A program made the translations under genes and the position numbers. Of a stretch of DNA of 64,000 nucleotides, positions 9,970-12,900 are shown one piece after another. The notes under the pieces are model-generated. The model saw nothing but the letters and a program-made list of their open reading frames with translations, searched no databases and had not been told where the DNA came from. This DNA comes from an uncultured Actinomycetota bacterium (GTDB lineage: Bacteria > Actinomycetota > Actinomycetes > JACCUZ01). Position 1 is the stretch's first letter. The number at the start of each line of letters is the position of its first letter. The stretch lies in assembly GCA_963794995.1 (NCBI GenBank), contig CAWCFV010000002.1:1332215-1396214 (forward strand), read 5' to 3'.

Positions 9970-12900
9970 ATGTTGCGTGCACCACGGTGGGTAGGTCTCA
10001 CGCTGTCTCCGATGCTCGTCGCCGGCCTCGCAGTGGGCCTGCAGGCAGGAGTCGCAGCCGCCGACCCGCCGGAGACCGGCCCGGGCTCGCTGGACACTTC
10101 GTTCGGCCAGTACGAGTCCGGCGTGTGGCAGGGCGGCCCCGGCGCCGTCGAGGCCCTGGACTCGACGGTCGTCCAGCCCGACGGCAAGATCGTCGCCGCC
10201 TTCGTCCATGAGACGTACTCCTACGACGAGTACGAGGAGTACGTCGTCAGCCGCGAGATCCGCGTGCACCGGTTCAACCCCGACGGCACCCCCGACGGGA
10301 CCTGGAACGACGGATCGCCCTACGTCTGGGAGAACGCCGGCACGCCGGCCGACTCCCCGAAGGGCGCCCTCGCCCAGGACTCCCAGGGCCGGACGTACGT
10401 CACGTCCATGCAGCTGGCCGACGACGAGGAGGAGGTCGCCGTCCTGCGGCTGGACGCCGGCGGCGCGCCCGAGCCGACCTGGGGGGACGCCCCGAACAAC
10501 GGCGGCTCCGAGGGCGTGGTGCTGCTCGACCTCGGGCACAAGACGAACGACCACGGCAGCGCTCTCGTCCTGGACGAGAGCCGCAACCGGGTCTACGTGG
10601 GGGTCTGGGTCCGGAACAACCAGGAGGTCCCCAGCCTCGACTTCGGCGTGGTCGGCCTGGCCATGGACGAGAACGACGACTACTGGGCCGGGGACGTCGA
10701 CGAGGACTTCGGCACCCCCACCCTGGACTTCACCGGCGGCGACGACACGGTCCGCGACCTCGCCCTGATGCCCGACGGCGACGTCCTGGCGGTCGGCTAC
10801 GCCGAGGGCGAGCCCGGGGAGGTCGCCGGCCTGTGGCGGCTGCACCCGGACGGCACCCCGGACGGCAGCTTCGGCAACGACGAGGGACAGCCCGGTGTCG
10901 TCGAGTACGACAGCAACGACGGCCGGGTCGTCGGCGCCCGGTCGGTGACGGTCGACCCCGCGACCGGGCAGATCTACCTGTCGGTCCGCACCGACGACGG
11001 CGAGTCGAGCACCGGCGGTGTCGTCGCGCTCGACAGCGACGGCACCGTGGACACCGGTTTCGGCCGCGCGGGTGCTCCGCTCGGCGACGGCCTGGTCCGC
11101 ACGCCCTACGGCTTCGACGGCGACAACGCCGGCGTCACCCTGGACGAGGCCGGCCGGGTGCTGGTGACCGGCTCGGCCGACCAGCCCACTGTCGCCCGGC
11201 TGGTGAACGACCGCTACCCGCAGGACACGACGTTCAACGCCAGCGGCTCCGAGACCCTGTCGTGCCCCGACAACGAGGACGTCGGCACCAACGGCAGCGG
11301 CAGCGGCAACGCGATCACCACCACCGCCGACGGCACCGTCGTCGTCGCCGGCATCTGCGACACCTACGAGAGCGGCGGGGTCCCCACCGTCTGGGCGCTG
11401 CAGGGCGGCAACGACGTCCCGCTCCCCGAGACCCCGGTCGGCGTGGAAGGCGGCGGGATCGCCACGCTGACCGCCGGCAACATCGACGTGAACGACCAGG
11501 GCCGCACCGTCGCCGTGTCGCCCGGCGAGTCGCTCGACCTGTCCTTCGACTGGGACTTCCAGCCGCCTGACGGCGAGGTCTACTGCCCGGGCTGCATCGA
11601 CCAGGTCGTCGCCGGGTTCGTCAACAGCGGGCCCGAGCTCTGTGTCGACGCCGGGAGCCCGGAGGTGGAGGGAGGCGAAGGGTCGCTGAGCGGGTCGCTC
11701 GACGCACCGTCCAGCGCCGGGCCGGTACTACCTCGCCGTCAACCGGATCTGGGCGTACGGCTGCACGGGAGGCACCCCCGAGGCCCCGAGCTGGGAGCTC
11801 CTCGGCAGTCCGTGGGACGGCAACGCCACCCCCAGGCCCCCCACCTACCTCGTCGCGGTCGACGTCGTGGCCGGCACGTCCGGGCTGACCCTCACGGCCG
11901 ACAGCCCCACGGCGGACGCCGGGCAGCGGGTCATCCCCGTCGGCAACATCTCCAAGGACGACCTCACCGGCTCGCTGACCGGCCTGCAGGCCTCCCCGCT
12001 GCGCGGCTCGATGCTGCGCGGCTCCCCGCTGCGCGGCTCGATGCTGCGCGGCTCCCCGCTGCGCGGCTCGATGCTGCGCGGCTCCCCCCTGCGCGGCTCG
12101 ATGCTGCGCGGCTCCCCCCTGCGCGGGTCCCCGATCCTGCTCTCCCAGGTGCCCCTGGAGCCGCCGAAGACCTGGGCCGACGTCCTGGCCGGCACGACCT
12201 TCGCCCTCCAGCCGCTGCAGAACGTCACGCTGCAGCAGGTCCTCGAGCTCGACCCGCCCGGGCTGGCCGGCCTCACCCTGGCCGACATCGACATCGCCCG
12301 CACCCCCCTGCGGGACGTGAGCCTGGCCGCGATCATGCTCGGCAGCACGCCGGTCTCCGCGCTCACGCTCACCGGCCTGCCGGCCGGGACCCCCGGCTCC
12401 GCGACCCTGGTCGGGCTCGAGCTGGGCGGGGCCGACCTGAGCACGGTCTACTCCCACGGGATCCACCTGCGCGGCGTCGCTCTCGTCGACGCCCCGATCG
12501 CCACCGCCCGGCTGGGCGACATGTGGCTGGACCAGACACCGCTGGGCGCGGTGCCGCTGACCCAGCTGCCGGGCAGCTGGTACGACGCCACCGGCTGCCC
12601 GAGCCCGTGCGACACCCTCGGCCAGCTCCAGGAGCACGACCCGGCAACCGGGATCAAGGACGTGGCCACCGTCGGGGCCCTGCTCGCTCTCCCGTCGACA
12701 ATCGGGCTGGACCCGACGATCGGGCAGCTGCTGCCCGGGCTGATCGCCCTCGACCAGCTCGGCTACGAGAACGTCCGCACCGACCGGCTGACGGGGGCCG
12801 CGCCGCTGCCCGCCAGTGGGGTGACCTACACCGCGGCGTTCGACATCGACTGCGGCCTGTCCGGTCCGCTCACCGTCGACTTCCAGCTGCCGGGTGGCTT

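Follow-up and report, generated by a model that had tools for sequence, protein, structure and literature searches.

The DNA analyzed here is a stretch of 64,000 nucleotides from an uncultured Actinomycetota bacterium (contig CAWCFV010000002.1, positions 1,332,215 to 1,396,214; hereafter the window), and the subject is a large plus-strand gene (9970-16660 in window coordinates), predicted to encode a secreted C25-like peptidase, whose coding sequence lies in two reading frames. The GC content of the window is 73%, which makes the GC content at third codon positions (GC3) a very sharp marker of the true reading frame. In the frame plot, GC3 is 0.95-0.99 in frame 1 from ~10050 to 11640 and 0.93-1.00 in frame 2 from ~11730 to 16650; i.e., the coding signal (GC3 ~0.97) follows frame 1 from the ATG at 9970 to ~11715 and thereafter frame 2 as far as its stop codon (16658-16660). 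This layout bears out the first-pass annotation, made from the letters alone, which had placed the passage from frame 1 to frame 2 at ~11720, and the peptides that it quoted are exactly those encoded. The ATG is preceded by a Shine-Dalgarno (SD)-like sequence (AAAGGGGA) and opens a typical signal peptide (MLRAPRWVGLTLSPMLVAGLAVGLQAGVAAADPP).

One gene across two reading frames

The 5' limit for the frame switch is set by the last TGA in frame 2 (Table 1), and the earlier statement that frame 2 offers no start between this TGA and 11867 is correct for canonical start codons, the sole near-cognate start in that interval being an ATC at 11747. The GTG at 11867 sits 141-150 nt inside the frame 2 coding signal and homology and is not a real start. 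As written, the upstream open reading frame (ORF) carries ~697 out-of-frame codons after the junction, and the 4.9 kb of frame 2 past it comprise 1656 codons with no stop and a GC3 of 0.93-1.0. Removal of one base anywhere within ~11713-11725 produces a 2229-residue ORF with zero internal stops. The interval 9970-16660 is one gene of 2229 codons that is split by a single +1 insertion.

Comparison with related loci leads to the same result. A scan of species-representative genomes returned three loci (L001, L002 and L003; best identity 56%), no relatives were found in a scan of metagenome contigs, exact look-ups of three window proteins gave no match, and a protein search with the hypothetically fused window protein retrieved the relatives P0001-P0004. 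Together with L005, L006 and L007, the three scanned loci make up six positional orthologous loci. Their neighborhood is syntenic with the window, and the flanking genes share 84-95% amino acid identity (70% for the large divergent neighbor); given these conserved neighbors and the synteny, the matching loci are positional orthologues of a fast-evolving gene, whose own identity to them is 45% in the N-terminal part and 62% in the C-terminal part.

At the junction (A-P-x-x-P-G-R-Y-Y), each of the six positional orthologues keeps to one frame and aligns with no gap. Specifically, residues A-P before the join (frame 1) and G-R-Y-Y after it (frame 2) are invariant in the protein alignment, and LDAPSS(A/P)GRYY of the window aligns gap-free with LAAPSRPGRYY of the orthologues. 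The protein relatives P0001-P0004 (45-52% identity over 67-95% of the query) likewise read straight through the junction, four out of four. In L001 both halves of the gene lie in frame 1, and in L002, an 85-kb contig of a metagenome-assembled genome (MAG), the gene is intact as a single ORF of 2226 residues, compared with 2229 for the repaired window gene. When the L002 protein is aligned with the window by tblastn, residues 1-588 match 9889-11721 in frame 1 (E=4e-141) and residues 548-2226 match 11600-16657 in frame 2 as a single segment (E=0, 60-62% identity); the two segments are collinear but fall in different frames of the window, and there is no other frame change relative to L002. Such a collinear two-frame match of an intact orthologue is far beyond chance. 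Thus, the claim that a single-base frameshift divides one gene stands, and the orthologue comparison that had been proposed as its check revealed no locus in which the two parts form separate genes with their own starts.

The alignments also confine the surplus base to ~13 nt. The orthologue codons at the junction read GCx CCG xCC CGA CCG GGC CGC TAC TAC (A P x R P G R Y Y), and the window reads GCA CCG TCC AGC G CCG GGC CGG TAC TAC. The tetranucleotide AGCG at 11713-11716 is the most parsimonious site, because the CCG GGC CGG TAC TAC that follows encodes P G R Y Y in frame 2, in agreement with the orthologues. The alternative repair, removal of one base of GGGCC at ~11719-11723, gives ...SSAGRYY..., and either repair yields the 2229-residue ORF. 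The first-pass annotation had named a particular C (gccgggCcgg, ~11722); its removal does join the frames, but the codon alignment places the likelier base 6-9 nt upstream.

The encoded protein and its surroundings

Read through the junction, the protein begins with a signal peptide and a delta-60 beta-propeller, continues through linkers of SPLRG pentapeptide repeats to a C25-like cysteine peptidase and ends in a PxKF domain. The N-terminal delta-60-repeat/DUF5122 propeller is recognized by both TIGR02608 (E=6e-27) and PF17164 (E=5e-13). The earlier label of protease can be retained with a qualification: the Pfam C25 match is weak, covering positions 45-348 of the 374 of the profile, and the L002 orthologue does not match Pfam C25 at E<=0.01, but a conserved, family-wide His/Cys pair and the NCBI names of homologues support it. 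The peptidase region has >140 homologues, several of which are assigned to PF01364 or bear the NCBI name 'C25 family cysteine peptidase', and in an alignment of 26 sequences a His (NAHYD, 14528-14530; H320) and a Cys (GCHAG, 14648-14650; C360) are invariant and 40 residues apart. These are putative catalytic residues, consistent with a clan-CD dyad. In clan CD the His is usually followed by Gly, and in the window protein it is followed by Tyr. A PDB sequence search with the peptidase domain gave no match at E<=1, a literature search on 'PxKF' found nothing relevant, and the propeller-SPLRG-C25-PxKF architecture appears uncharacterized.

The orthologues keep SPLRG-type repeats at both inter-domain positions, with SPLRV/SPLRG x9-10 at the position of the longer block of the window. 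Speculatively, since these repeats contain Arg and belong to a C25-like (gingipain-family) protein, they might be linkers or autoprocessing sites. Additionally, within its conserved neighborhood no gene evolves faster than this one (neighbors at 2460-9749 and 16717-23413, compared with L002, L003 and L007). Its divergently transcribed neighbor (5844-9749, minus strand) encodes 1301 residues, has an orthologue in L006 with Guanylate_cyc, AAA_16 and TPR_12 domains and is kept beside the large gene in every locus that reaches upstream (L001, L002, L003, L005, L006 and L007). Its product is a possible candidate regulator of the peptidase gene.

Table 1. Coordinates of the features of the split gene and of the second frameshift, in window positions
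Feature	Position	Strand	Basis or detail
5' gene part, frame 1	9970-11715	+	GC3; matches to TIGR02608 and PF17164; N-termini of P0002-P0004 align
Last frame 2 stop before the junction (TGA), 5' limit for the frame switch	11687-11689	+	
Interval of the surplus base (+1 insertion), likeliest at AGCG 11713-11716	11713-11725	+	Gap-free protein alignment; codon alignment with L001, L002 and L003
3' gene part, frame 2, ending at TGA 16658-16660	11717-16660	+	GC3; L002 homology
First canonical frame 2 start (GTG)	11867-11869	+	Within orthologue-conserved sequence; no SD-like motif upstream
Tandem repeat, period 15/30 nt	11992-12133	+	9.5/4.5 copies; 99% matches at period 30; encodes SPLRGSMLRG x4.5, in frame
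Second, shorter SPLRG block, between the middle and peptidase regions	13352-13422	+	~3.5 copies; also in P0001
First frame 1 stop past the junction	13813-13815	+	
Peptidase_C25-like domain	13982-14899	+	PF01364, E=9e-7; 28.9 bits, gathering score 23
C-terminal PxKF ('rightmost') domain	16292-16654	+	NF038114, E=2.6e-11; 43.9 bits, cutoff 35
Second +1 insertion, in the NADP-isocitrate dehydrogenase gene (icd1 type; gene 43737-44949)	44664-44670	-	ORF/GC3 scan

Origin of the surplus base

Every long ORF of the window was checked for a coding signal that gives out far ahead of the stop codon or is already present far upstream of the first start, and among the strong coding segments only two loci were flagged: the large gene and a minus-strand site at ~44670, which lies in a gene for NADP-isocitrate dehydrogenase (IDH). 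At this second site, TCGCCCGAAC should read TCG CCG AAC, and deletion of one C restores a 405-residue IDH that matches M. tuberculosis Icd1 (4hcx) from end to end (E=4e-218), with no gap at the join. The window thus holds two broken genes among ~50, both with +1 insertions and one belonging to core metabolism, and neither shows any further lesion or decay. With all strong coding segments scanned (58.7 kb), neither compensated frameshift pairs nor decayed pseudogene relics were found (strong coding density, ~92%). Separately, in the gene for a predicted secreted protein at 34220-35557 (plus strand), the coding signal fades ~225 nt before the stop, and the last 75 residues of the product form an Arg/Pro/Ala-rich tail that follows a hydrophobic stretch. 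By sequence, the product looks like a D-Ala-D-Ala carboxypeptidase, and its tail could be either a genuine disordered tail or the trace of a third indel, close to the 3' end of the gene.

Broken copies of the large gene are also present in other assemblies. The proteins P0001 (with P0122 on the same contig), P0002, P0004 (locus L003) and P0121 are fragmented and have out-of-frame tails, and in long-read ENA/MFD assemblies the family proteins come in 2-5 pieces. The loci L005, L006 and L007 are ENA contigs with Flye-style names; in these contigs, as in an MFD long-read MAG, both the large gene and its conserved neighbors are full of frameshifts, the affected neighbors including PGM/PMM (up to five frame changes), TetR, the TPR-cyclase gene and DeoC. 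Because the conserved neighbors in L005-L007 are equally frameshifted, recurrent pseudogenization specific to the peptidase gene was rejected, and the breaks in these three loci are generic long-read consensus noise. L003 has at least two frame changes inside the large gene and none in ~9.5 kb of its flanks, a pattern that is mildly odd. All known relatives of the lineage stem from MAG projects on soil and sediment, and the frameshift-rich state of their assemblies indicates that the lineage is mostly known through indel-prone sequence.

In view of these observations, we infer that the surplus base is probably an insertion error of the consensus or assembly. Such an error would have been left in the consensus, as happens in long-read or poorly polished assemblies, with the DNA of the organism unchanged, and the organism would make the full-length secreted multidomain protein of 2229 codons. 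This explanation is favored because two +1 lesions occur in otherwise flawless genes, one of them a housekeeping gene, with no older relics around them, and also because the gene as written would consist of ~697 junk residues and a peptidase part that has neither a start with an SD sequence nor a signal peptide. Such a split state would be costly, and its persistence is unlikely. The first-pass annotation had offered a recent pseudogene or an assembly indel; both are kept here, and it is the second +1 insertion, in the IDH gene, that tilts the evidence toward an indel. It had also pointed to a short G/C run as the context of the indel. Both indel sites do touch a 3-nt G/C run, but at 73% GC this is statistically uninformative, as a G/C run of at least 3 nt is touched by ~50% of all 13-nt segments and by 35% of those of 7 nt, and runs of 6-7 nt elsewhere in the large gene stay in frame. 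The run context was therefore rejected as an error signature.

Several points weigh against a consensus error. Two frameshifted genes in ~50 are within reach of real pseudogene frequencies, and an IDH of the icd1 type can be dispensable if a second IDH is encoded elsewhere in the genome. The large gene evolves fast (45-62% identity, compared with 84-95% in its neighbors), as surface or secreted proteins that are dispensable and open to loss are expected to do. Furthermore, the indel site is not a long homopolymer, and the noisy assemblies of the relatives do not identify the sequencing technology behind the window itself.

The main alternative is a genuine and very recent 1-bp insertion that made the gene a young pseudogene, so that the full-length secreted peptidase is no longer made and the product is a signal peptide and propeller fragment with an out-of-frame tail. 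This is possible but rather doubtful. The sequence as given does contain the frameshift, at a site that is not a classic homopolymer error site and in the fastest-evolving gene of the locality, and such rapid change typifies surface proteins that are dispensable or under antigenic selection; additionally, free-living bacteria normally have 1-3% of their genes as frameshifted pseudogenes. Conversely, the 6.7 kb of the gene contain no second lesion and the downstream codon-usage signal is undiminished, a lesion of identical type interrupts the highly conserved and otherwise perfect IDH gene, older pseudogene relics are missing from the window, and both short-read-style assemblies (L001 and L002) hold the gene in one frame. 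For L002, the short-read origin is taken to be indicated by the k-mer/coverage-style name of the contig. The missing signs of decay lower the standing of the pseudogene explanation, although a very recent event would show none either. Were both surplus bases real, which seems unlikely, the lineage would just have inactivated both a 2,229-residue propeller-C25 peptidase and an icd1-type IDH, and the window would offer a snapshot of very early gene loss in an uncultured high-GC actinomycete lineage.

Two further explanations retain very little probability. That the locus holds two genes, i.e., a propeller protein that ends past 11720 and a peptidase gene that starts at GTG 11867, would fit the GTG-started ORF at 11867-16660 but is highly improbable: the frame 2 coding signal and homology already begin at ~11717, ahead of this GTG, no SD-like sequence was found before it, the frame 1 coding signal is gone by ~11700 yet no stop follows for 2.1 kb, and all orthologues are continuous across the region, L002 as one ORF. 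The orthologue continuity and the lack of an own start or SD sequence for the downstream part refute this arrangement. Equally hard to credit is a regulatory joining of the frames by programmed +1 ribosomal frameshifting or transcriptional slippage, for which nothing speaks beyond the +1 overlap of two long ORFs and the lack of a stop codon where they join; it was rejected since the site is unconserved (a frame change here in 0/6 orthologues, theirs being scattered elsewhere and also in neighboring genes), TCC AGC GCC GGG CCG GTA contains no in-frame stop, recognizable shifty or hungry-codon motif or A/T homopolymer, no Rfam recoding element was found (no family better than E=0.5), RNA structure in the 121 nt downstream is no better than in shuffled sequence (z=-0.18), and, unlike at known recoding sites, non-shifted ribosomes would meet no frame 1 stop until 13813 and would add a 697-residue junk tail.

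Consequences for annotation and comparison with known systems

The practical value of these results lies in a flag for annotation and assembly quality. The two ORFs should be merged as one gene and marked as frameshifted or low-quality, the wrong outcomes being two hypothetical proteins or a chimera of 1,308 residues with a junk tail. The out-of-frame tails of the database proteins P0001, P0002 and P0004 are traced to long-read assembly errors. The frameshift in the IDH gene warns of possible further indels in the assembly, so that inferences of gene loss or of metabolism need confirmation at the level of reads. The frameshift itself is an ordinary event of a well-known kind and is little biological news either way; of biological note is a large gene for a secreted C25-like peptidase, uncharacterized and diverging much faster than its neighbors.

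Among known classes of broken genes, the locus can be compared with those frameshifted by consensus indels (NCBI PGAP 'pseudo; frameshifted'), with which it shares a single uncompensated 1-bp indel between two otherwise perfect halves and a rate of more than one event per 64 kb, one of them in a housekeeping gene. The Nanopore/Flye/Medaka assemblies of relatives are alike at a higher density, and the window differs from this class in that its site is not a long homopolymer. Young unitary pseudogenes arising by 1-bp insertion are similar in that the +1 insertion costs a non-essential and fast-evolving secreted protein its downstream 1,650 codons, and differ in that the window gene is free of secondary decay and co-occurs with an identical lesion in the IDH gene. 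Programmed +1 frameshifting of the prfB type is alike only in the direction of the frame change, since here there is no in-frame stop, no internal SD stimulator was identified and orthologue conservation is missing.

As for the protein, it resembles the C25 peptidases (gingipain family, MEROPS clan CD) in scoring above the PF01364 gathering score and in its invariant, putatively catalytic His...Cys pair, with the Cys placed after a hydrophobic strand. Gingipains differ in having neither the N-terminal delta-60 propeller nor the SPLRG repeat linkers of the window protein. Finally, the C-terminal PxKF domain is a feature that the window protein shares with the large actinobacterial and Chloroflexota entries named 'C25 family cysteine peptidase' or 'PxKF domain-containing protein'.

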